Assembly: GCA_018061145.1 (NCBI GenBank)
Contig: JAGOUR010000004.1
Span: 10,625-74,624 of the forward strand
DNA: 64,000 bases
Direction: 5' to 3'
Source of the DNA: Minisyncoccota bacterium
Lineage (GTDB): Bacteria; Patescibacteriota; Minisyncoccia; Phycocordibacterales; UBA9973
Shown here: piece by piece, positions 4,372-61,937 of the stretch
Numbering within the stretch: position 1 is the stretch's first letter
How the letters are laid out: each line of letters opens with the position of its first letter
The notes under the pieces: generated by a model
The model's input: the letters and a program-made list of their open reading frames with translations, nothing else
Databases searched by the model: none
Told to the model about the DNA's origin: nothing
Translations under genes and position numbers: made by a program

Positions 4372-5040
4372 TTATTTCTTTTCTATTTTACCTCCCAAAA
4401 ACGCAACAGATTCTGTTGGAGAAGCAATAATAAGATATTTATATGAAAGAAGATCGACTGGATTCATGTTGCGAACTTCGTCAATCTCAGCGATTGGGAT
4501 GTTTGCAAAACTCTTCTTTAAGACATCATTTTTTGCAGGAACTGTGATGTAAGCTTTTGGCTTTGTACCTACACAGATTTTTTCAAATCCAGATACAGTA
4601 CTCAAATCTTTCAACACAGCAATTGCGTCCTTTGTTTTGATATTTTTCATTGAAAGATCTTCAACAAACAATATTTCACCATTCTTAAATTTCTTTGAAA
4701 GAACTGTGAATAGAGCTTGAATCTTCATCTTCTTGTTGATTTTTTGCGCGTAGATCTTATCGTTGCGTGGACCATGAGTCACACCTCCGCCTACCCAGAT
4801 AGGTGAGCGAGATGAACCGTGACGTGCACGTCCTGTTCCCTTTTGTTTCCAAGGCTTGCGTCCTCCACCGCGAACTTCTCCGCGTGTTTTGACATGAGCT
4901 ACAGGTGTACGAGCATTTGCTTGCATAGCTGTAACTACTTGGTGAACTAGGTCAGCGTTCCATTTTAGACCAAAAACTTGCTCTGGAAGTTTTAGACTTC
5001 CAACAGACTTACCCTTTTGATTGTATACTTGTGTTTCCAT
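4372..5040 (-). CDS. rplD: 50S ribosomal protein L4
   Basis: L4 family sequence (RGGGRKPWKQKGTGRAR). Confidence 0.9.
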   Translation of the reverse strand: METQVYNQKGKSVGSLKLPEQVFGLKWNADLVHQVVTAMQANARTPVAHVKTRGEVRGGGRKPWKQKGTGRARHGSSRSPIWVGGGVTHGPRNDKIYAQKINKKMKIQALFTVLSKKFKNGEILFVEDLSMKNIKTKDAIAVLKDLSTVSGFEKICVGTKPKAYITVPAKNDVLKKSFANIPIAEIDEVRNMNPVDLLSYKYLIIASPTESVAFLGGKIEKK

Positions 5041-18102: not shown

Positions 18103-18157
18103 TTTGTTTTTATTTAATTTTGCTCATATTATATCATATTTGAACCCTATTTGTCAA

Positions 18158-18228
18158 CCCCGTTAGAAGCAGGTCGCCCCAAGGTGACCGTAGCACTCGC
18201 ATGCTAGCGAGGGCGGCTTCTAACGGGG
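18158..18228. repeat. 71-bp element with perfect 13-bp terminal inverted repeats ccccgttagaagc / gcttctaacgggg (a member of the CCCGTTAGA family)
   Basis: Both arms read directly from the sequence. GC-rich interior. Confidence 0.6.
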
Positions 18229-18239
18229 TCAATGGGGTA

Positions 18240-18335
18240 AATCCCCCCTCCCATTAGCCAAGGGGAGGATTGAGGAGGGGTGAATAATTTTAGCACCCCC
18301 TCTCAGTCTCCCCCTTAGCAAAGGGGGAGAGGAAA
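18240..18335. repeat. GC-rich double-hairpin element (copy 1), REP/MITE-like
   Basis: Hairpins cctccc-attagccaag-gggagg and ctccccc-ttagcaaa-gggggag. About 85% identical to the copy at 61670..61762. Confidence 0.6.
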
Positions 18336-22424: not shown

Positions 22425-22454
22425 ACACACCTCTCTGTCCGTCGAGTACTAGGA

Positions 22455-22482
22455 CATCTCTCCTTTGCAAGGAGAGATTTTG
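22455..22482 (+). terminator. Terminator hairpin after the histidine kinase gene, of the polypyrimidine/polypurine type
   Basis: atctctcc-tttgcaa-ggagagat followed by tttt. Confidence 0.5.
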
Positions 22483-28269: not shown

Positions 28270-29808
28270 ATGAAACTACAACCTATAAACAACTCAAATA
28301 TACCTGAATATGTTACACATGTAACATCTACCCTCGAAAACGCTGGTTTCGAGGCATTTCTCGTGGGAGGCTGTGTCCGAGACCTGATGATCGGTAGGGA
28401 AGTAAAGGATTGGGATATCACAACCAACGCCACTCCAGAGGAAATCATCCCACTGTTTGAAAAGACAATATACGAGAACAAGTTTGGTACAGTGGGTGTA
28501 TGTATTCCAAAGGTTACACATGAAACTGTTTCAGGTGAAACTAACTCTACCTCACCCAAACCCTCTCCCGCGCCAGAAGAGGGGGCAATTCAGTACCACA
28601 TAATGGAGGTCACACCGTACAGAACTGAAGCAAAATATAGCGATAACAGGCACCCAGATGAAGTGAAATTCAGCCGGGATATATCCGAGGATCTTCAGAG
28701 ACGAGACTTCACAATCAATGCCATGGCATACAATATAGATAAAGGACAGGTGATTGACCTTTATAAAGGACAACAAGACCTAACGGACAGTGTTATACGG
28801 GCCGTGGGTGCCCCGTCCTTGAGATTCCAGGAGGATGGTCTAAGAATGCTCCGTGCAGTACGATTCGCCTCACAGCTCTCCTTTATGATTGATTCCGATA
28901 CTATGACCGGGGCTGTGGATAACTCACATCTTTTAAAAAATATTTCTGGAGAGAGGATTCGTGATGAATTCATGAAAATCATCGAGAGTCCTCGTAGTGT
29001 CGAGGGTGTAGGCATGCTACAAAAACTCGGACTACTAAAATACATCGTTCCTGAACTCGAAGAGGGTATAGGGTGCGATCAGGGTGGGGCACATATCTAT
29101 GATGTATTCACTCACTGCCTAGGTGCACTAGGTCATGCTACTGACAAGGGATACTCTACCGATATCCGCCTGGCTGCACTGTTCCACGATATAGGAAAAC
29201 CTAGGACTAAGAGAAAGGGGATAAAGAAACCTACATTCTATGGCCACGAGGTAGTGGGTGCGAGGATGACAAAGGTGATCATGGAAAGACTCAAATTCCC
29301 AAAGGATACAATAGAATTTGTATCAAATATGGTTCGTCGTCACATGTTCTTCTCCGATACAGAGCAGATCACTCTCTCTGCAGTGCGCAGAGTGATACAG
29401 AATGTCGGGCCAGAACATATCTGGGAACTGATGGAGATACGTGAATGCGACAGGGTAGGGATGAAAAAAGCTGAGGCTCCATATAGACTGAGGAAATATC
29501 ATGCGATGATCGAAGAATGTCTACGCGATCCGATATCTGTCGGTCAGCTCGTAGTAGACGGCAACATTATGAAGAACGAATTAGGCGTAGCACCTGGACG
29601 TCGGATGGGATGGATTCTCCACTCATTACTAGAGGAAGTCCTCGAAGACCCCACAAAAAACACTCGAGAATATCTAGACATCCGCGTGCGAGAGTTGAAT
29701 GATATGACTGATGAGATATTAAAAGAGCTTGCCGATAAAGCAAAAGAACAAAAAAATTTACTTGAGGAAGAAGAGATCGCTGAATTACACAAAAAACACA
29801 AGGTGTAG
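28270..29808 (+). CDS. cca: CCA-adding tRNA nucleotidyltransferase with C-terminal HD domain
   Basis: Pol-beta NTase motif GGCVRDLMIG...DWDITT, RNA-binding region, and HD motif (LFHDIGK). Carries a ~35-aa S/T/P-rich insertion near aa 90-125. Confidence 0.8.
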   Translation: MKLQPINNSNIPEYVTHVTSTLENAGFEAFLVGGCVRDLMIGREVKDWDITTNATPEEIIPLFEKTIYENKFGTVGVCIPKVTHETVSGETNSTSPKPSPAPEEGAIQYHIMEVTPYRTEAKYSDNRHPDEVKFSRDISEDLQRRDFTINAMAYNIDKGQVIDLYKGQQDLTDSVIRAVGAPSLRFQEDGLRMLRAVRFASQLSFMIDSDTMTGAVDNSHLLKNISGERIRDEFMKIIESPRSVEGVGMLQKLGLLKYIVPELEEGIGCDQGGAHIYDVFTHCLGALGHATDKGYSTDIRLAALFHDIGKPRTKRKGIKKPTFYGHEVVGARMTKVIMERLKFPKDTIEFVSNMVRRHMFFSDTEQITLSAVRRVIQNVGPEHIWELMEIRECDRVGMKKAEAPYRLRKYHAMIEECLRDPISVGQLVVDGNIMKNELGVAPGRRMGWILHSLLEEVLEDPTKNTREYLDIRVRELNDMTDEILKELADKAKEQKNLLEEEEIAELHKKHKV

Positions 29809-48461: not shown

Positions 48462-50033
48462 ATGTCATTCTCGCGAATATATTCGGCGCAGACACATCTA
48501 CTAAAAGGCAAAGTAGTAACTATCGAAGTGGACATCACAAAGGGGACACTCCATGCATTTACTCTTGTCGGACTACCAGACAAAGCGGTCGATGAATCCA
48601 AAGACCGAATGAGCTCAGCGCTCAAAAATTCTGGATTCAATTCTCCTAAAAATCAAAATCAAAAAATAGTAATCTCGCTGTCCCCGGCAGATTTAAAAAA
48701 GGAGGGACCGTATTTTGATCTGGGTATCGCACTGGCATATCTACTATCCGCAGGGGAGATTGATTTTGATCCAGAGGGAAAAATATTTCTAGGCGAGCTA
48801 TCACTCAATGGTGAACTACAAAATATAAAAGGTGCACTACCCCTGGCAGAGGAGGCCAAGAAGCGGGGCTTCAAAGAAATATTTTTACCAATCGGCAATG
48901 CGACAGAGGCAGCACTAGTGTCAGGGATAAAAATATTTGGAGCCCGAAATCTCCGCGAAGTCATCGATCATCTATCTACCCCGCGCCGTGACAAAAAGGG
49001 AAATTTACTAGAGAAAGAATTGAATAAAATCACACAGACCCCCGAGACAAAAATAATTTTTGAAAATAAAAAACATGCGATAGATTTTTCTGACATCCGG
49101 GGGCAAGAGGGTGCAAAGCGTGGATTAGAAATCGCAGCAGCCGGTGGACACAACATAGCGATGAGTGGATCACCCGGCACAGGCAAGACGATGCTCGCAC
49201 GAGTCTTCTCGCATATCCTACCAGAATTATCCAAAGAAGATATTTTAGAAATTACAGGTATTCATTCTGTCGTCGGATTACTCGATGGAGCACTCGTGAC
49301 TGAATCTCCATTCCGCGCACCACATCATACTGCGAGTTATGTATCGATGATCGGTGGTGGCACAAATCCAAAACCAGGCGAGGTCACCCTCGCACACAAG
49401 GGAGTACTCTTCCTCGATGAATTTCCAGAGTTCGAGAAAAAAGTTCTCGAGTCGCTACGCCAGCCACTCGAAGACAATATAGTATCCATCTCTCGCGCGC
49501 GAGGGTCTGCAATTTTTCCATCAAATTTTATTCTAGTAGCTGCGATGAATCCCTGCCCATGTGGCAATCGTGGTGACAAGAAAAAAATGTGCATCTGCAA
49601 ACCGATGGATCTGGATCGCTACAATAGGAAACTCTCCGGACCGATTCTAGATCGTATTGATATCTGGGTAAATGTATCATCAGTAGACTATGACAAGCTA
49701 GCCAGTGGAGGAGTCGAAGGAGACAGAACAGAGACTATCAAAGAGCGCGTAGCCCGAGCCAGAAATATCCAGGAGAAGAGATTTAAGAGTGCCACTAGGA
49801 ATATAAAAACAAATAGCGAGATGAATGTAAAAGAATTGAATGCATTTGCGCCACTATCGCCCGAGGTGCGCGAGATACTACACAGCAGTGCCGAGCGTCT
49901 CCAACTATCTGCCCGTGCATACCACAGAGTGATAAAGCTCGCCCGTACTATCGCAGACCTCGAGAGCTCTGAGCACATCACAACCCCACATATCCTAGAA
50001 GCCCTGCAGTATAGACCGCGGACACAGAATTAA
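48462..50033 (+). CDS. comM: ComM/YifB-family Mg-chelatase-like AAA+ ATPase
   Basis: Lon-like N-domain. Walker A GSPGTGKTM and Walker B VLFLDEFPEF. C-terminal Mg-chelatase subunit ChlI domain. Confidence 0.85.
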   Translation: MSFSRIYSAQTHLLKGKVVTIEVDITKGTLHAFTLVGLPDKAVDESKDRMSSALKNSGFNSPKNQNQKIVISLSPADLKKEGPYFDLGIALAYLLSAGEIDFDPEGKIFLGELSLNGELQNIKGALPLAEEAKKRGFKEIFLPIGNATEAALVSGIKIFGARNLREVIDHLSTPRRDKKGNLLEKELNKITQTPETKIIFENKKHAIDFSDIRGQEGAKRGLEIAAAGGHNIAMSGSPGTGKTMLARVFSHILPELSKEDILEITGIHSVVGLLDGALVTESPFRAPHHTASYVSMIGGGTNPKPGEVTLAHKGVLFLDEFPEFEKKVLESLRQPLEDNIVSISRARGSAIFPSNFILVAAMNPCPCGNRGDKKKMCICKPMDLDRYNRKLSGPILDRIDIWVNVSSVDYDKLASGGVEGDRTETIKERVARARNIQEKRFKSATRNIKTNSEMNVKELNAFAPLSPEVREILHSSAERLQLSARAYHRVIKLARTIADLESSEHITTPHILEALQYRPRTQN

Positions 50034-50049
50034 TACACCTCATCCGCCC

Positions 50050-50140
50050 TACGGGCACCTTCTCCTGGAGAGGAGAAGGGGGATTAATACGAATTAGAAT
50101 TTCCTCCTCTCCTTTCCAGGAGAGGGTCAGGGTGAGGTTG
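50050..50140. repeat. GC-rich double-hairpin element (copy 3, diverged) immediately upstream of the DUF559 gene
   Basis: ccttctcc-tggag-aggagaagg and cctctcc-tttcc-aggagagg. Confidence 0.55.
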
Positions 50141-50149
50141 ATTTATTTT

Positions 50150-50539
50150 ATGAAAAGAATCATCAACAATTTTAAGAGAAAAGAAATTAGAAAAAATCTC
50201 AGAAGAACCCAAACACCACAAGAGATAATCCTTTGGGCTCGACTCCGTAATAATCAAACAAATTTTAAATGGAAAAGGCAAGTAAGCATTGGATCATACA
50301 TTGCTGATTTTTATTGTCACAAAAAACTCCTAGTAATTGAGATTGATGGGTCACAACACCTAGAAAACAAAGAATATGACATAGAGAGGAGCAAATTTTT
50401 TCTTGATTTAGGGATTAGAACAATAAGATTTTGGAATAATGAAATTAATACAAATATAGATGGGGTGATACTAAAAATTGAGAGCGAATTAAAGAATACA
50501 CCTCACCCCAGCCCTCTCCTGAAAGGAGAGGGTGAATAA
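50150..50539 (+). CDS. DUF559 endonuclease-domain protein (Vsr-like / PD-(D/E)xK fold)
   Basis: RRTQTPQEIILWARLRN...IGSYIADFYCH...LVIEIDGSQH...DIERSKFLLDLGIRTIRFWNNE matches the DUF559 signature. The C-terminal 14 aa are encoded by a repeat hairpin. Confidence 0.65.
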   Translation: MKRIINNFKRKEIRKNLRRTQTPQEIILWARLRNNQTNFKWKRQVSIGSYIADFYCHKKLLVIEIDGSQHLENKEYDIERSKFFLDLGIRTIRFWNNEINTNIDGVILKIESELKNTPHPSPLLKGEGE

Positions 50540-50540
50540 T
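50505..50540. repeat. Half-copy of the GC-rich hairpin element, overlapping the 3' end of the DUF559 gene
   Basis: ccctctcc-tgaaa-ggagaggg followed by tgaataat, the same tail as in copies 1 and 2. Confidence 0.5.
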
Positions 50541-50543
50541 ACC

Positions 50544-51317
50544 TTAAATCTCTTTTTCTAATCTTTTAGCTTCGGACCAGGCAAGCTCGTAGATCTTTTT
50601 CATAGCATCGGCGATCTCGGCGGATTCTATTATAATACCTAGCTTTTCGCGCCAAGAGGCGATCATGACCTTGTTATCATAGATATTTATCTCTGGGTGG
50701 AAACCAAAACTATCAGGAACTATTACAGATTCACGCTTCTCTTCTTTATCAAGACTAGCTCGCTCGCGAGCTTCAGGTGAATCTGGGAAAATGGCACGGA
50801 TAGGAATTCCTTTTTTTGCACGCCTCTTGTAATACTCAGGGAAATAATGGGGAAGTGTCGGCTGGATATCCTCGACACTGGCATAGGCAAGAATTGTCTC
50901 ACTAGAGCTGAGAGTATCTTCATACACCTTCTGCAGTCCATCCTTTCCCTCATAAAATTTTATCTTTGGCCTATTCTCTTTATTGTGAATAGATACCAGC
51001 TCAGGAATGATCTCTTTGGCCTGCTTAAGTGCGCTCGTATATTCAGAGATCTTCTCCTCTAATATCTGCTCTATATTTTCAGGGGATTCCGCTGTGTATT
51101 CCTGCTTTGGTTCTTTGCCCGAGGTACGCACGAGCTTTTTTAATTCTAGAGATGCTAATACATGGTATGCAGTAGGGCGGTTGATACCAGCTTTGCGGGC
51201 AATCTGCGTAACGGTACCTTTTCCCAATTCCAGTAGAGCCAAATAGACTTCAATTTCTTTCTCCGAAAAGCCAATAGAAAGTAGGCTTTTTTTGATATCA
51301 AATGATGTGTTTTCCAT
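50544..51317 (-). CDS. TrmB-family transcriptional regulator
   Basis: N-terminal winged HTH EIEVYLALLELGKGTVTQIARKAGINRPTAYHVL. TrmB-like C-terminal domain. Confidence 0.7.
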   Translation of the reverse strand: MENTSFDIKKSLLSIGFSEKEIEVYLALLELGKGTVTQIARKAGINRPTAYHVLASLELKKLVRTSGKEPKQEYTAESPENIEQILEEKISEYTSALKQAKEIIPELVSIHNKENRPKIKFYEGKDGLQKVYEDTLSSSETILAYASVEDIQPTLPHYFPEYYKRRAKKGIPIRAIFPDSPEARERASLDKEEKRESVIVPDSFGFHPEINIYDNKVMIASWREKLGIIIESAEIADAMKKIYELAWSEAKRLEKEI

Positions 51318-51548
51318 CCCATTAAAAAATTAAAATAATAATGTTTATTTACAGTTTCCCGTAAGTCGATTTTCTAACGGGACAAGTATATTCATTGTAT
51401 TCCAAGCAATATATTTTGTCAATCTATATCAACAAAATTATTTAAATCTATAAAACACCCTGTTTTACAAGATTAAAATTAAAGAAATTAGTTCTGTATG
51501 CTTGACAAATATTGCATGCCTGATATTATATATATAAAATTTTAAAAC

Positions 51549-51971
51549 ATGGAACAAATAGAAAAAGGGCTCGATGACTTTCGAGTAGAAGCAGTTCGGG
51601 GTTTTTTAGGATATCAATCACTAAAGTACGATTTGTCTAAAATAACACCAATTCAAATAAAGTATTCTAGATTATGCTTTAAAAAAGAAGGATGTTTTAT
51701 CGGTGACCTCAGATTAGAAGAAGCTACTTATATTAGCGATGCGATACTTCCTAATACCGAGGTCAAAAATGTACTATTAGAGGTAGACAGAGCTGGTAAT
51801 CGGTGGCGAGTAGTCATGAAAATTAATTTTTTTGGCTTGAGCTTGTGTGTGTCCCACACGGAAGAAAAACAATTCTATCTAGTTGGAATTCCTGATAATT
51901 TTGCCCCCAGATTCAAGGTGATTTGCAGGGAAGATGACCCTAATTTTCACAGAAATGACAATCTAATTTAA
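51549..51971 (+). CDS. Hypothetical 140-aa protein
   Basis: ORF with an adequate start context. No motif recognised. Confidence 0.3.
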   Translation: MEQIEKGLDDFRVEAVRGFLGYQSLKYDLSKITPIQIKYSRLCFKKEGCFIGDLRLEEATYISDAILPNTEVKNVLLEVDRAGNRWRVVMKINFFGLSLCVSHTEEKQFYLVGIPDNFAPRFKVICREDDPNFHRNDNLI

Positions 51972-52049
51972 TTTTTCATATAGAGCAGTGGGCTAACTAC
52001 TGTTCTATATTATAAAGTTAATTTAAGTTATTATTAAATAAGTAAATAT

Positions 52050-53735
52050 ATGACAAAGCAAAATTGTAAAACATGTAGTAGCGAGTTTGAGATAAGGAAT
52101 GAGGATCTTGTTTTTTACGAGCAGATGAAAAGCCCTGCACCATTACATTGCCCTGACTGTCGGATGATGAGACGACTAGCATTTAGAAACGAGCGTACCT
52201 TGTACCGCAGAGATTGTGATCTGTGTAAAACTAGTGGAGTATCTCTATACCCAGAAGGAACAGCTTTCCCCGTGTATTGTCATAAATGCTGGTGGAGTGA
52301 TGCATGGGATCCACGCGACTTTGCAATGGACTACAACCCAAGCAGACCATTTCTTGAACAATTCAAAAAGTTACAAGCCAAAGTCCCTCGTATAGCGCTA
52401 CTAGTAATCGACTCTGTCCGATCAGACTACACAAACAATGCAGGGGAGAATAAAGATTGCTATTTAATATTTGCAGCAGAGAACAATGAGGACTGCATGT
52501 ATGGCCGTCTGGTTCAACGTTCTAAATTCTGCAATGACTGTGTCTCTACATATGACTCCGAGCTATGCTATGAATGTATCGACTGCAGGCAATGTTTCAA
52601 GTGTATGTACAGTGAACAATGTCAGTCTAGCAGTGACCTACTATTCTGCTACAACATGCGTGATTCACAAAATTGCATCCTCTGTACCAATGGTCGCCAT
52701 ATGTCGAACTCTATTTTAAATATAAAATACGATAAAGAAACTTTTGAACAAAAGAAAAGGGAAATTCTAGCGAGTCATGAGAGCATAGAGCAAGCCAAGA
52801 AACAATTTGAAGAATTAAAATCTCAATCTATTGTAAAATACGCAAGACAGACAAAATGCCACAACGTCACTGGGGACTATATGTTTAACTGCTATGACGG
52901 AATCAGGCTTTTCGACACTTCGGATTCAAAAAATTGTTCTTATATGGCTGATGCTATGGATGTAAAAGATTCTATGGATTGCAACAACTTTTATATTAAA
53001 TGTGAATTTGAATACGATATGATGGGAGTTTTAGGTGGGTCAAAAAATAAGCATGGTGTCTATGTGATGTGGTGTAACAATGCAGAATATTGTGACAGTT
53101 GCTACAATTCAAATGATCTTTTTGGGTGTATTAGACTAAACAAAGAAAGCTATTCTATCTTAAATAAAAAATATGAAAAAGAAGAATATCTAAAACTAAA
53201 AGAGCAGATAATCGAGAGTATGAAATCTGATGGAACATACGGGCAATTCTTTCCTCCAGAACTTTCTCCTTTTGGATACAATGAGACATTGGCAAAAGAA
53301 TACACTCCGATGAATAGGGAGGAGGCTCTGGCGAGAGGTTATCATTGGCAAGAAAAAAATACTGGCACATTTGGCAAGGAGACAATGAGCGAAGAGAATA
53401 TTCCGAGCTTCATAGAAAAGACTCCGGACACCATAACATCAGAGATCCTCGCCTGCAATGAATGTGGCAAGAATTATAAAATCACACAAGCAGAATTGGA
53501 TTTTTATAAACGACTAAACATCCCGATCCCGCATAAAGATTTTGAATGTCGCCACCAAGACAGGATGGGGAAAAGAAATCCGAGAAAATTATATGATGGT
53601 CAATGTATGTGTCAGACAGAAAATCATATCAATCACGAGGGCTCAAAGTGTAGCGAGATATTCAAGACGACATACAGCCCCGACAGAGGCGAGACAGTAT
53701 ATTGTGAATCATGTTACCAACAAGAAGTAGCATAA
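52050..53735 (+). CDS. Cysteine-rich 561-aa protein with duplicated terminal zinc-ribbon modules and an internal Cys-repeat array
   Basis: N-terminal CKTC...FY...P..CPDCR...RN.R.LY..DC parallels C-terminal CNEC...FY...P..ECRHQDR...RN.R.LY..QC. More than 60 Cys in total. Confidence 0.45.
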   Translation: MTKQNCKTCSSEFEIRNEDLVFYEQMKSPAPLHCPDCRMMRRLAFRNERTLYRRDCDLCKTSGVSLYPEGTAFPVYCHKCWWSDAWDPRDFAMDYNPSRPFLEQFKKLQAKVPRIALLVIDSVRSDYTNNAGENKDCYLIFAAENNEDCMYGRLVQRSKFCNDCVSTYDSELCYECIDCRQCFKCMYSEQCQSSSDLLFCYNMRDSQNCILCTNGRHMSNSILNIKYDKETFEQKKREILASHESIEQAKKQFEELKSQSIVKYARQTKCHNVTGDYMFNCYDGIRLFDTSDSKNCSYMADAMDVKDSMDCNNFYIKCEFEYDMMGVLGGSKNKHGVYVMWCNNAEYCDSCYNSNDLFGCIRLNKESYSILNKKYEKEEYLKLKEQIIESMKSDGTYGQFFPPELSPFGYNETLAKEYTPMNREEALARGYHWQEKNTGTFGKETMSEENIPSFIEKTPDTITSEILACNECGKNYKITQAELDFYKRLNIPIPHKDFECRHQDRMGKRNPRKLYDGQCMCQTENHINHEGSKCSEIFKTTYSPDRGETVYCESCYQQEVA

Positions 53736-53738
53736 ATT

Positions 53739-53768
53739 AAAATCACCCCAATATGGGGTGATTTTAAT
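53739..53768. terminator. Bidirectional terminator between the Cys-rich gene and the PG-binding protein gene
   Basis: aatcacccca-at-tggggtgatt with flanking A-run and T-run. Confidence 0.65.
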
Positions 53769-61061: not shown

Positions 61062-61937
61062 ATGATTCATAAAGCTAAAAAATCACTAGGGCAAAACTTT
61101 CTCAAGAGCAAACCAGCATTGAATATGATGATTAGTGCCGGCGAGGTAGGGAATGCAGATACTATAGTAGAGATCGGTCCGGGTAAAGGCGCTCTCACAG
61201 AGAAACTCCTTGAAAATGCGGGACATGTCATTGCGATTGAAAAAGATCGTGATCTTATAGACTTTCTGAAAGAAAAGTTCGCGACAGAAATAGAAAACGG
61301 GAAATTTGAATTAGTGCAAGGGGATTGTCTGGAGTGGAATCCAAAAGTACTAAAAGGTTCAAACTACAAGCTAATAGCAAATATCCCATATAATATAACC
61401 GGTGCAATACTAAAAAAATTCCTCTCTGAAGAAAATCAGCCAGAGCGCATGGTGCTATTAGTCCAAAAGGAAGTAGCCGAGAGGATAGTGGCCCGAGACG
61501 GCAAGGAGAGCATACTGTCTATCAGTGTAAAAGCATACGGCACACCAAAATACATGATGAAAGTAGAAAAAAGATTCTTTTCTCCGGCACCAAAGGTAGA
61601 TTCTGCTATTATCGCTATAACAGCTATATCAAAAAAGAATTTTGAATCCGAGTCCCCCCTCCCATTACCAAGGGGAGGGCTGGGGAGAGGTGAATTAATT
61701 AAGAACCCCCTCACAGTCTCCCCCTTAGTAAGGGGGAGAGGGACTCAGAATGCAGAATCCCGATTTTTTGAAATACTAAAAGCTGGATTTGCCCACAAGA
61801 GAAAGGTGCTGAAGAAAAACCTTGAAGACTCACTATCAAAAGAAAAAATAGTCGAATTGTTTAAAACCCACAATATAGATGAAAAAGTTAGAGCTGAGGA
61901 TATAAAGCTCCAAAACTGGCTAGATTTCATAAAATAA
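61062..61937 (+). CDS. rsmA: 16S rRNA (adenine1518/1519-N6)-dimethyltransferase KsgA/RsmA, carrying an in-frame ~31-codon insertion derived from a GC-rich repeat element
   Basis: SAM-binding LGQNFL...EIGPGKGALT, NIPYNIT, C-terminal FAHKRKVLKKNL. Residues SPLPLPRGGLGRGELIKNPLTVSPLVRGRGTQ are encoded by repeat copy 2. Confidence 0.85.
   Translation: MIHKAKKSLGQNFLKSKPALNMMISAGEVGNADTIVEIGPGKGALTEKLLENAGHVIAIEKDRDLIDFLKEKFATEIENGKFELVQGDCLEWNPKVLKGSNYKLIANIPYNITGAILKKFLSEENQPERMVLLVQKEVAERIVARDGKESILSISVKAYGTPKYMMKVEKRFFSPAPKVDSAIIAITAISKKNFESESPLPLPRGGLGRGELIKNPLTVSPLVRGRGTQNAESRFFEILKAGFAHKRKVLKKNLEDSLSKEKIVELFKTHNIDEKVRAEDIKLQNWLDFIK
61670..61762. repeat. GC-rich double-hairpin element (copy 2), located inside the ksgA coding sequence
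   Basis: About 85% identical to 18240..18335. Hairpins cctccc-attaccaag-gggagg and ctccccc-ttagtaa-gggggag. Confidence 0.65.

Follow-up and report, generated by a model that had tools for sequence, protein, structure and literature searches.

A DUF559 nuclease gene framed by intrastrand triplex motifs and its possible partnership with BoxC/PIT/TM repeats

A DUF559 (YcjD-like) nuclease gene stands free between the genes for a ComM-like ATPase and a TrmB-like regulator in the window, i.e., the whole stretch of 64,000 nucleotides that was analysed. Its ORF, which starts at position 50150, is bracketed by three hairpins and ends inside the third, as a preliminary description of this DNA had stated; codons 117-128 run through this hairpin before the stop codon (TAA, 50537-50539). 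The hairpins of that description are real, but it missed a third segment adjoining the hairpins, a 30-nt inverted repeat around the ORF and a further copy of the element at 28550-28583. The features are collected in Table 1, where the three motifs at the gene are called R1, L1 and R2.

Table 1. Positions in the window of the DUF559 gene, the motifs and the segment missing from close relatives
Feature	Position	Strand	Remarks
Inverted motif pair, gene-less	18247-18331	.	L 18247-18281 (+), R 18297-18331 (-)
Single variant motif	22430-22478	-	19-nt hairpin in the second loop
Single motif	28550-28583	-	in frame within CCA-adding-enzyme-like ORF 28270-29808; encodes TSPKPSPAPEEG
Segment missing from close relatives, 3.7 kb	50034-53737	.	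blastn/tblastn against relatives
Motif R1	50036-50081	- (G-rich triplex-capable strand)	scan of the window; homologous copies in relatives
Motif L1	50105-50138	+	hairpin, loop GTCA, third strand GGGTGAGGT at 50130-50138
DUF559 (YcjD-like, EDxHD/Vsr-type) nuclease gene	50150-50539	+	ATG start, 129 aa, domain at residues 10-114
Motif R2	50500-50532	-	inside the 3′ end of the DUF559 ORF
TrmB-like gene	50544-51317	-	within the 3.7-kb segment
140-aa ORF	51549-51971		within the 3.7-kb segment
561-aa Cys-rich ORF	52050-53735		within the 3.7-kb segment
Inverted motif pair, 96 nt	61646-61741	.	in frame within ksgA/rsmA (ORF 61062-61937)

On the plus strand, R1 comprises a C-box (CACCTCATCC, 50036-50045), a second loop with a small hairpin (GCCCTACGGGCA, 50046-50057) and the main hairpin CCTTCTCCT-GGAG-AGGAGAAGG (50058-50079); its predicted fold as single-stranded DNA has an energy of -13 kcal/mol (z = -4.2), and a homologous copy lies upstream of eleven close relatives. 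L1 contains the hairpin CCTCTCCT-TTCC-AGGAGAGG (50106-50125), lies 11 nt (TGATTTATTTT) ahead of the DUF559 ATG and supplies the left arm of the inverted repeat of 30 nt (50114-50143 / 50495-50524, 80% complementary). R2 reads, again on the plus strand, as a C-box (ACCTCACCC, 50500-50508), the loop CAG and the hairpin CCCTCTCCT-GAA-AGGAGAGGG (50512-50532). The two loops are 4 and 4 nt long in L1 and 3 and 3 nt in R2; in R1 and in the copy at 22430 the second loop is long and structured, beyond the published limit of 1-6 nt, and such copies with a hairpin in the second loop fall outside published searches. The pattern CTCTCC-N2-8-GGAGAG gave three matches against 0.00 in shuffled sequences, and a scan of the window for the full motif gave nine elements against 0.07.

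In these elements the third segment mirrors the purine arm of the hairpin at a distance of 3-4 nt or of one small hairpin, and the repeat unit is therefore larger than the hairpin itself. Its parts follow one another as a pyrimidine arm, a loop, a purine arm, a further loop of about 3 nt and a mirror-image arm of G, T and A, and the G-rich strand, when single, could fold into a hairpin joined by a third strand. A mirrored third segment is the mark of intrastrand triplex motifs (BoxC/PIT/TM), and by their architecture the hairpins of the window are members of this known class rather than a new family; the hairpin family of the preliminary description thus exists, but its identity with a class already in the literature (PMC4666352) had gone unrecognized. 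Across 1.16 Mb of surveyed sequence, 288 G+C-rich hairpins begin with the pyrimidine arm, as against 21 with the purine arm. A mirror copy of the purine arm, and not a direct one, accompanies 178 of these 288, 131 of 184 spacers before the mirror arm measure 3 nt, and family-wide the third-strand triplets place G of the arm opposite G at 98% of positions and A of the arm opposite either A (46%) or T (50%). This pattern agrees with the E. coli consensus TM_ECO and with the class II purine motif (PMC4666352). A direct-repeat model of the box beside the hairpin was rejected, with 179 mirror and 76 direct sides at a match of at least 85% (null about 12%). ViennaRNA predicts only the Watson-Crick hairpins of the motifs and leaves the third segment unpaired. 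Membership of a known RNA family was likewise dismissed, as an Rfam scan of the window gives four tRNAs only.

BoxC/PIT/TM motifs (Bachellier, 1990s; Hoyne and Maher, 2000; Holder et al., 2015, PMC4666352) have been reported from E. coli and from over 260 genomes, with neither a function nor a mobilising enzyme assigned to them (PMC4666352). The class II purine motif folds in vitro, the CD and NMR evidence being limited to E. coli TM_ECO oligonucleotides (PMC4666352). TM_ECO, which can be written CCCTCNCCC-N3-6-GGGNGAGGG-N3-GGGNGAGGG, and the window motif CCCTCTCCT-GAA-AGGAGAGGG-CTG-GGGTGAGGT share the same architecture and nearly the same sequence, and both kinds have a 3-nt second loop (TTA, CCG, CTG and others), occur singly or as inverted pairs and lie at variable loci. 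On the other hand, the E. coli copies, as published, are always intergenic and come with no associated gene, function or mobility activity, whereas in the window motifs stand on both sides of a DUF559 gene, reach into the end of its coding sequence and are found in frame within ksgA and the gene for the CCA-adding enzyme.

The 129-aa product of the gene matches the Pfam family PF04480 (DUF559) with E = 2.1e-32 and 111.6 bits (cut-off 20.6) over profile positions 3-108 of 109, i.e., the whole domain. It has 1731 homologues, the closest at 60-81% identity, and E. coli YcjD is 43% identical to it (E = 5e-27). The residues E25, D53, E64, D66, H70 and D77 are invariant among 31 homologues, and the catalytic core, which the preliminary description had proposed to examine as a PD-(D/E)xK triad, is thus intact, but of the Vsr/EDxHD type (E, D, E-x-D, H, D), which lacks the canonical lysine; the Vsr equivalents (E25, D51, H64 position, H69, D97) were assigned by motif order and the description in PMC3239194. 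The identities at the three codon positions of the gene (0.79/0.88/0.53) point to purifying selection on the protein. The DUF559 structure PDB 3hrl was matched by hmmsearch (E = 1.4e-27), and the AF2 model (pLDDT 85.5, tail disordered) fits it in Foldseek with a TM of 0.81 and an rmsd of 2.6 Å; Foldseek also matches it to the homing endonuclease I-Bth0305I (3r3p; probability 1.0, TM 0.76), which, as judged from the predicted model, is the nearest characterised fold.

Published classifications place DUF559 and Vsr in the same superfamily clade, with a histidine as general base and no lysine, but several results argue against membership in Vsr proper (PF03852): apart from DUF559, the only Pfam match is MTES_1575, below threshold, hhalign finds no significant relation between the DUF559 family profile and E. 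coli Vsr (probability 0.5%), and the fold similarity is weak (Foldseek TM of only 0.43-0.56, E > 0.6). No Dcm-type cytosine methyltransferase gene adjoins the DUF559 gene, whose neighbours encode the ComM-like ATPase and the TrmB-like regulator; the neighbours in relatives differ. Matches to profiles of the cholera toxin and heat-labile enterotoxin B chain (E about 1e-3) are short and concern an unrelated fold, and were judged spurious.

The protein ends in ...TPHPSPLLKGEGE*, and the tail PHPSPLLKGEGE derives from the third hairpin, residues 117-128 being translated R2. The tail PHPSPLLKGEG is kept in nearly all close DUF559 homologues. Third codon positions are 0.91 identical in this tail and 0.53 in the body of the gene, and synonymous codons are 90% identical in the tail compared with 55% in the body. 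The hairpin does encode the C-terminus, as the preliminary description noted, but the tail is evidently constrained at the level of DNA, not of protein, and would be a mere translation of the downstream motif and a by-product of it.

The association between gene and motif extends far beyond the window. A motif lies within 200 nt on at least one side of 77 of 79 related DUF559 genes from many phyla (3.5% of random pseudo-genes in the control) and on both sides of 53 of the 79 (0.19% of random pseudo-genes); within 160 nt of DUF559 there are 3.5 motifs per kb, and elsewhere in those loci 0.072 per kb. The preliminary description had made its proposal depend on flanking repeats that recur around other copies and on a catalytic core that is not degenerate, and both were found. 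When five DUF559 units in unrelated contexts are compared, homology begins at the left motif and ends just after the right one; the unit of the gene and its two motifs is about 430 bp long, with unrelated sequence on either side. The layout of the unit is a motif ending 10-45 nt before the DUF559 start, about 10-25 nt that usually contain a TATAAT box, the ORF, and a second motif that covers the last 12-14 codons and overlaps the stop. This linkage seems to be unreported: none of the openly accessible literature consulted on DUF559, ycjD, COG2852, BoxC/intrastrand triplexes and REPIN/RAYT connects the gene family with the repeats.

The window also records a change at the site of the gene. In relatives, a terminator hairpin and the PG_binding/M23 peptidase genes follow directly after the ComM stop, and blastn homology to the window skips from about 50042 to about 53734; three relatives whose ComM is 97%, 96% and 88% identical have no DUF559 by tblastn. 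The C-box of R1 overlaps the left junction of the missing segment, and an imperfect direct repeat of about 17 nt lies at both junctions (50029-50045 / 53737-53753). The hairpin after ComM in the DUF559-less relatives has the arms TCACCTC(A) / GAGGTGA, the left of which is present at both ends of the segment in the window. No transposase of the DDE, serine or tyrosine type is present, although the inverted repeats are. The contigs found by looking up the exact TrmB-like neighbour protein are all 99.9-100% identical to the window. DUF559 homologues with 73-81% identity lie after ComM, after YchF, in a type IV pilus operon and after a probable yebC-type gene, and the DUF559 unit, to go by these sequence contexts, relocates between genomes. 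The motifs likewise differ among genomes: 40.6 kb from four relatives contain none, compared with nine in the window.

Elsewhere in the window the motifs occur without a DUF559 gene. The intergenic pair at 18247-18331, upstream of clpP, has its third strands pointing inward, an arrangement identical to that of the type A plus type B TM pairs of E. coli (PMC4666352), and its predicted single-stranded fold reaches -24.7 kcal/mol (z = -3.7). The elements that the preliminary description assigned to the hairpin family at 18240 and 61670 correspond to inverted pairs, and the one at 22455 is a variant whose second loop contains an additional small hairpin, reading CCTCTCT / GTCCGTCGAGTACTAGGAC / ATCTCTCCTT-TGC-AAGGAGAGAT; the same kind of variant also flanks a DUF559 gene in another locus. 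The pair in ksgA (-27.6 kcal/mol, z = -4.6) adds 32 residues (…SPLPLPRGGLGRGELIKNPLTVSPLVRGRG…) to KsgA and splits its Pfam RrnaAD match in two, and exactly these 96 nt are missing in the closest relative (93% aa identity). The ORFs of ksgA and of the CCA-adding enzyme read straight through their motifs, which are recent in-frame insertions. The gene-less pairs have the arms GGGGAGG / GGGGGAGA, a subtype other than that of the motifs flanking DUF559 (GGAGAGGG), as is the case for the dispersed motifs of the window in general. Should every motif family require a nuclease of its own, the gene-less pairs would have their partner outside the window. In four other loci, solo motifs kilobases away share their arms with the motifs of the local DUF559 gene.

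The E. coli gene ycjD belongs to the motif-linked DUF559 genes: the end of YcjD falls in a degenerate motif, and TM_ECO #9 lies about 170 nt downstream of the gene. ycjD is present in 62% of the 5,426 complete E. coli genomes and can be replaced by eefRABCD; the genomes carry from 1 to 32 motif copies each, and sampled rows with the gene tend to have more extra TM#9-like copies (median 3 vs. 1), a partial trend that is confounded by phylogeny. A hairpin with the arms CACCTCAT… / …ATGAGGTG, located exactly at the ycjD boundary, is common to strains with and without the gene. The two boundaries that can be compared with a DUF559-less relative (the ComM terminator in Patescibacteria and the sapF terminator in E. 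coli, for example of ST131) agree in that the unit abuts a pre-existing hairpin, and the arms of both hairpins, CACCTCA/TGAGGTG, resemble the third-strand box of the motif; more speculatively, this box may guide the choice of target.

The pairing of motif and DUF559 recurs in many phyla including that of E. coli, which suggests that the enzyme still missing for the repeats may be a nuclease of this family. The model we favour is a nuclease-repeat partnership of the RAYT/REPIN kind between DUF559 and the triplex motifs, to which we give a probability of about 0.45, i.e., slightly short of even. According to this model, the DUF559 protein would be a small Mg2+-dependent nuclease of the Vsr/EDxHD type that makes a nick or a cut beside the motif after recognising its structure, its sequence or both. 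The break would then be repaired by recombination with other motif copies, and this repair would spread motifs and gene-less pairs to new sites, including in-frame sites, and leave local deletions and rearrangements behind. As a simple nuclease would bring no strand-transfer activity, the spread of the motifs would depend on host repair, and a DUF559 gene located between its own substrates would be co-converted and thereby kept.

The likeness to REPIN-RAYT (Bertels and Rainey, 2011, PMC3116915) lies in a nuclease gene flanked by structured repeats that are also dispersed as inverted doublets (here, 18247-18331 and 61646-61741), in gene copies that are few and diverged, and in dispersed repeats that match the flanks of the gene in several loci. 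However, the RAYT enzyme is an HUH/Y1 (IS200/IS605-like) transposase, whereas DUF559 is a nuclease of the PD-(D/E)xK superfamily with a restriction-endonuclease-like fold, and its action on the repeats is putative; the repeats themselves are of the triplex type, mirror plus palindrome, have no GTAG tag and are overlapped by the gene. Several observations do not favour the partnership. The orientation of the motifs around DUF559 is variable (the dominant arrangement is seen in only 15 of the 26 cases with motifs on both sides), no triplex was detected in vivo in E. coli (PMC4666352), and E. coli O157:H7 has no ycjD at the usual locus but retains about 15 motifs, which therefore persist without that gene. 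The preliminary description had proposed a selfish homing-like unit or a nuclease acting on the hairpins; the relocation and the absence from close relatives fit this proposal, but DUF559 copies within one locus or genome are only 43-80% identical, as expected of diverged old paralogues and not of fresh transposon copies, and no convincing target-site duplication was found at the ksgA insertion.

It is unlikely that DUF559 instead encodes a free-standing homing endonuclease targeting a sequence like the third-strand box (…CACCTCA / TGAGGTG…) or the centre of a motif pair, with the motifs being an independent MITE-like family; if such motifs preferred the same sites, they would co-localise with the gene without being mobilised by the nuclease. 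DUF559 does share its catalytic fold and the E/D/H/D residues with the EDxHD homing endonucleases, both being candidates for selfish genes (I-Bth0305I, 3r3p, PMC3239194), and the gene-less pairs resemble the flanks of the gene joined together. Also compatible with homing are the duplicated left arm of the ComM hairpin around the inserted segment, the E. coli hairpin at the ycjD boundary, common to strains of both kinds, and an 81%-identical homologue directly after ComM in a more distant genome too. Unlike I-Bth0305I, however, the 129-aa protein has no separate DNA-binding domain such as NUMOD repeats or an HTH, and its gene lies between repeats rather than in an intron or intein of a split host gene. 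Moreover, the flanking motifs travel with the gene, being of the GGAGAGGG type in five unrelated contexts, while the other motifs of the genome that the window belongs to are of different types, and the inserted segment carries three further genes rather than DUF559 alone. Rather less probable is a host repair or maintenance nuclease that, like Vsr, would clear hairpins or triplexes that stall replication, the motifs being selfish or neutral and the linkage a matter of co-selection or autoregulation. The relationship to the repair nuclease Vsr (PMC1189080, PMC3424549), the purifying selection, the diverged copies, mostly one per motif type as in domesticated genes, and the block of DNA polymerase by the motifs in vitro (PMC4666352) are in keeping with such a role, but a housekeeping gene would hardly be found in varied contexts at 73-81% identity, be missing where ComM is 96-97% identical or be absent from 38% of E. 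coli genomes. In addition, the sampled relatives without the gene are also without motifs, and the motifs thus appear together with the gene and not as a prior burden.

The stereotyped positions of the motifs relative to the gene, the TATAAT box between motif and ATG in many relatives, and a downstream motif that is transcribed and translated would suit cis-acting elements of the DUF559 gene (an insulator, an mRNA stabiliser, a translational brake or a means of silencing a toxic nuclease), with the dispersed copies as unrelated by-products. We regard this as improbable: motifs tolerated in frame in the essential ksgA and CCA-adding-enzyme genes are not strong terminators or translation blocks, there is no terminator-like site in 49900-50700, no T-tract behind the motifs and no promoter-like site at them, PIT elements have neither promoter nor terminator activity in E. 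coli, RNA does not form purine-motif triplexes (PMC4666352), and the gene-less pairs and motif arrays elsewhere would go unexplained. There is just as little chance of a passive association, in which the motifs are hot spots of recombination or insertion that collect a small mobile gene, or collect around it, with no functional link. Motif loci in E. coli are unusually rearranged and tied to genomic instability, with no mobility gene associated (Holder et al., 2015, PMC4666352), and the synteny break of the window falls exactly at the DUF559 unit; nevertheless, across phyla the link holds for nearly every gene (77/79) and is specific to a single gene family, the unit boundaries are conserved, with the stop codon fixed relative to the motif, and the flanking motifs follow the gene, rather than the genome, in their variation.

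The in-frame copies have a parallel in the Rickettsia palindromic elements, short palindromic repeats that lie in frame in coding genes and are translated as innocuous peptide inserts, like the motifs of the window. These elements are longer, restricted to Rickettsia and not of the triplex type, and we know of no nuclease associated with them.

DUF559 is a large bacterial domain family without a known function, and its physical link to the motifs across phyla merges two puzzles, BoxC/PIT/TM and DUF559, into a single testable hypothesis; E. coli K-12, which carries ycjD and 23 TM_ECO copies, is an organism in which it can be tested. It is tempting to speculate, somewhat more tentatively than for the nuclease-repeat partnership as such, that YcjD-like DUF559 proteins are the missing enzymes that create, move or maintain BoxC/PIT/TM repeats, as a second system, independent of RAYT/REPIN, that would combine a nuclease of the Vsr/EDxHD type with triplex-forming DNA and reach from Patescibacteria to E. 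coli. If the partnership is real, it would be a second class of nuclease-repeat symbiosis beside RAYT/REPIN, its nuclease may turn out to recognise DNA of a non-B structure, and a recurrent oddity of annotation would be explained, namely that unrelated proteins carry peptides such as PSPLLKGEG as tails or in-frame insertions. Action of DUF559 on the motifs would also explain the genomic instability at motif loci.

A DUF559 gene preceded by two hairpins and ending within a third had been proposed in the preliminary description, and all of these elements were found where it had placed them (see the table). The final 12 codons of the gene span hairpin 3 and give the C-terminus ...TPHPSPLLKGEGE. 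The pattern CTCTCC-N2-8-GGAGAG occurs three times, compared with 0.00 times in shuffled sequences, and thus is not due to chance; the G+C content of the window is 39%. In every hairpin, a short spacer is followed by a third segment that is a mirror (not a direct) copy of the purine arm (e.g., AGGAGAGGG-ctg-GGGTGAGGT in motif R2, on the minus strand). Across the window and 80 loci (1.16 Mb in total), 288 G+C-rich hairpins were pyrimidine-first and 21 were purine-first; the mirror segment was present in 178 of the 288, and the spacer before it was 3 nt in 131 of 184 cases. The third-strand partner of an arm G is G in 98% of positions, and that of an arm A is A or T with approximately equal frequency, a split that is partly built in because the detector scored A-to-T as a match. 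The order of arm, loop, arm, and mirror is what textbooks show for an intramolecular purine-motif triplex.

Features of the DUF559 unit, its motifs and related sites (window coordinates unless a locus is named)
Feature	Position or context	Remarks
Hairpin 1	50058-50079	perfect stem, 9 bp
Hairpin 2	50106-50125	perfect stem, 8 bp
Hairpin 3	50512-50532	perfect stem, 9 bp
DUF559 ORF	50150-50539	product 129 aa; Pfam DUF559 match, E=2e-32
Inverted repeat bracketing the ORF	50114-50143 / 50495-50524	30 nt, 80% complementary
Triplex motifs R1, L1, R2 at DUF559 gene	50036-50081 (-), 50105-50138 (+), 50500-50532 (-)	three copies; relaxed scan
Inverted motif pair	18247-18331	relaxed scan
Motif variant	22430-22478	hairpin within second loop; relaxed scan
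Single motif	28550-28583	relaxed scan
Inverted motif pair in ksgA	61659-61740	relaxed scan
3.7-kb segment	50034-53737	DUF559 unit, TrmB-like regulator gene, 140-aa ORF, 561-aa Cys-rich ORF
CACCTCA/TGAGGTG boundary hairpin	50034-50045	
Same, locus L089 (ComM relative)	4575-4600	
Same, locus L081 (E. coli K-12)	~11800-11755 (-)	
Same, locus L144	8953-8999	
DUF559 homologue P0003	3' of ComM	
DUF559 homologue L082	between YchF and LeuRS	
DUF559 homologue L085	inside type IV pilus operon	opposite strand
DUF559 homologues L100, L112	3' of gene with YebC-type-regulator-like C-terminal residues	assigned from sequence end only

A relaxed scan detected nine triplex motifs in the window, compared with 0.07 in shuffles. 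The hairpin family, to which elements elsewhere in the window had also been assigned, is therefore real, and it belongs to the known repeat class BoxC, also termed PIT elements or triplex motifs (TM). The E. coli TM consensus is CCCTCNCCC-N3-6-GGGNGAGGG-N3-GGGNGAGGG, and K-12 has 23 copies, five as inverted pairs; these elements fold into triplexes in vitro (by CD and NMR), showed neither promoter nor terminator activity and are associated with genomic instability, and the absence of a transposase or other mobility gene near the copies was stated explicitly (Holder et al., 2015; PMC4666352). Arm sequences vary by lineage (e.g., GGAGAGGG, GGGGAGG, and AAAGGGGGG) and the architecture is retained. 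At several loci, dispersed motifs have the same arms as those flanking the local DUF559 gene; in the window, the two are of different subtypes. A long imperfect hairpin (CCCCGTTAGAAGC…GCTTCTAACGGGG, ~75 nt) at 18150-18235 lies directly upstream of the motif pair at 18247-18331, and Rfam gave no match to it at the gathering threshold. On a Prolixibacteraceae contig (L048, 14066-14954), five motifs GGAGGGG-ctg-GGGGAGG are spaced by ~175 or 349 bp, an array of tandem longer units with one motif per unit.

The DUF559 gene and its motifs are one unit. In a DNA alignment of five units from unrelated contexts (the window and loci L001, L002, L082, and L085), homology extends from the left motif to just past the right motif, and the flanks outside are unrelated. 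The usual layout in close relatives is R1-L1-(TATAAT)-ATG...gene...R2-(L2), and the window carries R1, L1, and R2. Nearly every close homologue keeps the tail PHPSPLLKGEG(E/K). At third codon positions, identity is 0.91 where the gene overlaps the motif and 0.53 in the gene body, and the same codon encodes the same residue in 90% versus 55% of cases. Thus, the constraint on the tail acts on the DNA and, since the tail is also disordered in the AlphaFold model, it results incidentally from the reading frame continuing into the motif. Linkage was surveyed at 80 loci from species-representative genomes, each with a related DUF559 gene (39-76% identity); these include Patescibacteria, Proteobacteria, Bacteroidota, Chloroflexota, Nitrospirota, and Desulfobacterota. 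A strict detector scored 3.5 motifs per kb up to 160 nt from DUF559 and 0.072 per kb in the rest of these loci; with a relaxed detector, 77 of 79 genes had a motif no more than 200 nt away on one side or both (random pseudo-genes, 3.5%), and 53 of 79 had one on each side (0.19%). The repeat flanks are thus reproduced around other DUF559 copies.

Codon-position identities of 0.79/0.88/0.53 indicate purifying selection on the protein. Six residues (E25, D53, E64, D66, H70, and D77) show no variation in 31 homologues and, judging from motif order, are probably the counterparts of the Vsr/EDxHD catalytic residues known from I-Bth0305I (PMC3239194). The nearest solved structure by sequence is 3hrl, an uncharacterised N. 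gonorrhoeae protein (E=1.4e-27), which the predicted model (pLDDT 85.5) matches with a TM of 0.81; the second-best fold is that of a homing endonuclease, the I-Bth0305I catalytic domain (probability 1.0, TM 0.76). Comparing profiles with E. coli Vsr gave nothing significant and the fold match to Vsr was weak (TM 0.43-0.56); therefore, the protein is a DUF559/EDxHD-type nuclease and not an orthologue of Vsr. A separate DNA-binding domain is absent. Foldseek PDB matches of the model also include mitoribosomal large-subunit proteins of Toxoplasma and Tetrahymena (9i05, 9g6k, and 6z1p chains; TM 0.45-0.59), consistent with the Vsr/DUF559-like domains reported in organellar RNA-binding proteins.

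Motifs also occur within coding sequences. A 96-nt inverted motif pair (61646-61741) lies in frame within the ksgA/rsmA ORF (61062-61937), which encodes the 16S rRNA dimethyladenosine transferase, and adds 32 residues; ksgA of a 93%-identical relative (L093) is without it. Similar inserts at the same position in more distant KsgA proteins (P0132, P0133, P0144, and P0200) suggest either a loop that tolerates insertions or a hot spot for them. The single motif at 28550-28583 is in frame within a CCA-adding-enzyme/poly(A)-polymerase-like ORF (28270-29808), where it encodes TSPKPSPAPEEG. Many Patescibacteria KsgA proteins (P0126, P0130, P0133, P0145, P0151, and P0168, among others) carry an N-terminal insertion repeating the protein start (KAKKSLGLKKLPSRSFSPDTSF ahead of KAKKSLGQNF), which the window KsgA does not have.

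DUF559 homologues at 73-81% identity occupy different genomic contexts, and copies in one locus are diverged paralogues (43-80% identity). DUF559 was not found in the close relatives L088, L089, and L091 (ComM 97%, 96%, and 88% identical), in which a terminator hairpin (AAAATCACCTC-N3-GAGGTGATTTT) and then PG_binding/M23 peptidase genes come after the stop codon of ComM. In the window, the 3.7-kb segment is inserted ahead of that hairpin, here at 53744-53760. Its Cys-rich ORF contains many CxxC pairs, and a Pfam search with the 140-aa ORF gave no match. An imperfect direct repeat of ~17 nt, into which the left arm of the hairpin behind ComM falls, is present at both junctions, and the left junction lies inside the C-box of R1. 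Four relatives in which no DUF559 was seen (40.6 kb) contain 0 motifs versus nine in the window.

The DUF559-motif pattern also holds in E. coli K-12. Its YcjD shares 43% identity with the window protein and ends in ...RRSPSP; the ycjD stop codon falls within the loop of a degenerate motif, and TM_ECO #9 (1,351,239-1,351,204; Holder Table 1, PMC4666352) lies ~170 nt downstream of ycjD. Between the ycjD stop and TM_ECO #9 stands a decayed second copy of the 3' end of ycjD (…GAGACGGTGCTGGAGAATATT…; L081 11300-11420), which points to a past rearrangement at this motif-overlapping gene end. TM_ECO-like sequences were present in 5,426 of 5,426 complete genomes (1-32 per genome, median 19), a distinct class of E. 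coli genomes having only 2-6, and 365 matches in the E. coli collection were plasmid-borne. An intact ycjD locus is present in 62% of E. coli genomes; in O157:H7, O145, and O25:H4/ST131, eefRABCD takes its place (PMC12817139), and the motif was not found in the fabI-sapF region of ST131. Extra TM#9-like matches in a sample had a median of 3 in ycjD+ versus 1 in ycjD- chromosomes, a comparison confounded by phylogeny.

It is tempting to consider, with a probability of about 0.45, that nuclease and repeats form a partnership analogous to RAYT/REPIN. The DUF559 nuclease would recognise the structured motif, folded in vivo, and cut adjacent to it; recombinational repair of the cut would spread motifs and gene-less pairs and cause local rearrangements, and the gene would be kept because it is located between its own substrates. 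The motif architecture, the linkage, the limits of the unit, the constraint on the DNA, an intact active site, relocation, and presence/absence polymorphism were observed directly, and binding and cleavage of the motifs, their folding in vivo, and the route of repair are inferred from them. Counting against this partnership, no clear target-site duplication was found, motif orientation is variable (the dominant arrangement accounts for 15 of 26 two-sided cases), the dispersed motifs of the window differ in subtype from the gene flanks, and O157:H7 retains ~15 motifs with ycjD absent from its usual locus.

Alternatively, DUF559 may be a free-standing homing endonuclease that targets a box-like sequence. 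A hairpin with CACCTCA… and …TGAGGTG arms stands exactly at the DUF559 boundary both in Patescibacteria relatives (the ComM terminator) and in E. coli (the sapF terminator, common to ycjD+ and eef+ strains, with the annotated YcjD GTG start within its 3' arm), and the 11-mer ACACCTCATCC of the window site recurs unchanged in the sapF terminator of an ST131 strain. These features argue for homing and could mark a target site, be left over from an excision or be coincidental; however, the flanking motifs move together with the gene, which makes homing unlikely. That DUF559 is a repair nuclease of the host acting on triplex or hairpin obstacles is quite improbable given the patchy distribution of the gene and its joint appearance with the motifs. 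A cis-regulatory role of the motifs is hardly compatible with their tolerance within essential ORFs and the absence of a terminator or promoter signal, and we likewise give little credence to passive co-localisation at recombination hot spots, which is hard to square with a family-specific linkage of 97% and fixed unit boundaries.

No publication linking DUF559 to BoxC/TM was found in the freely accessible literature. The repeats and the gene family were already known; what appears to be new is the near-universal linkage, the overlap of ORF and motif, and the insertion of motifs in frame, and all three are amenable to direct experiment.
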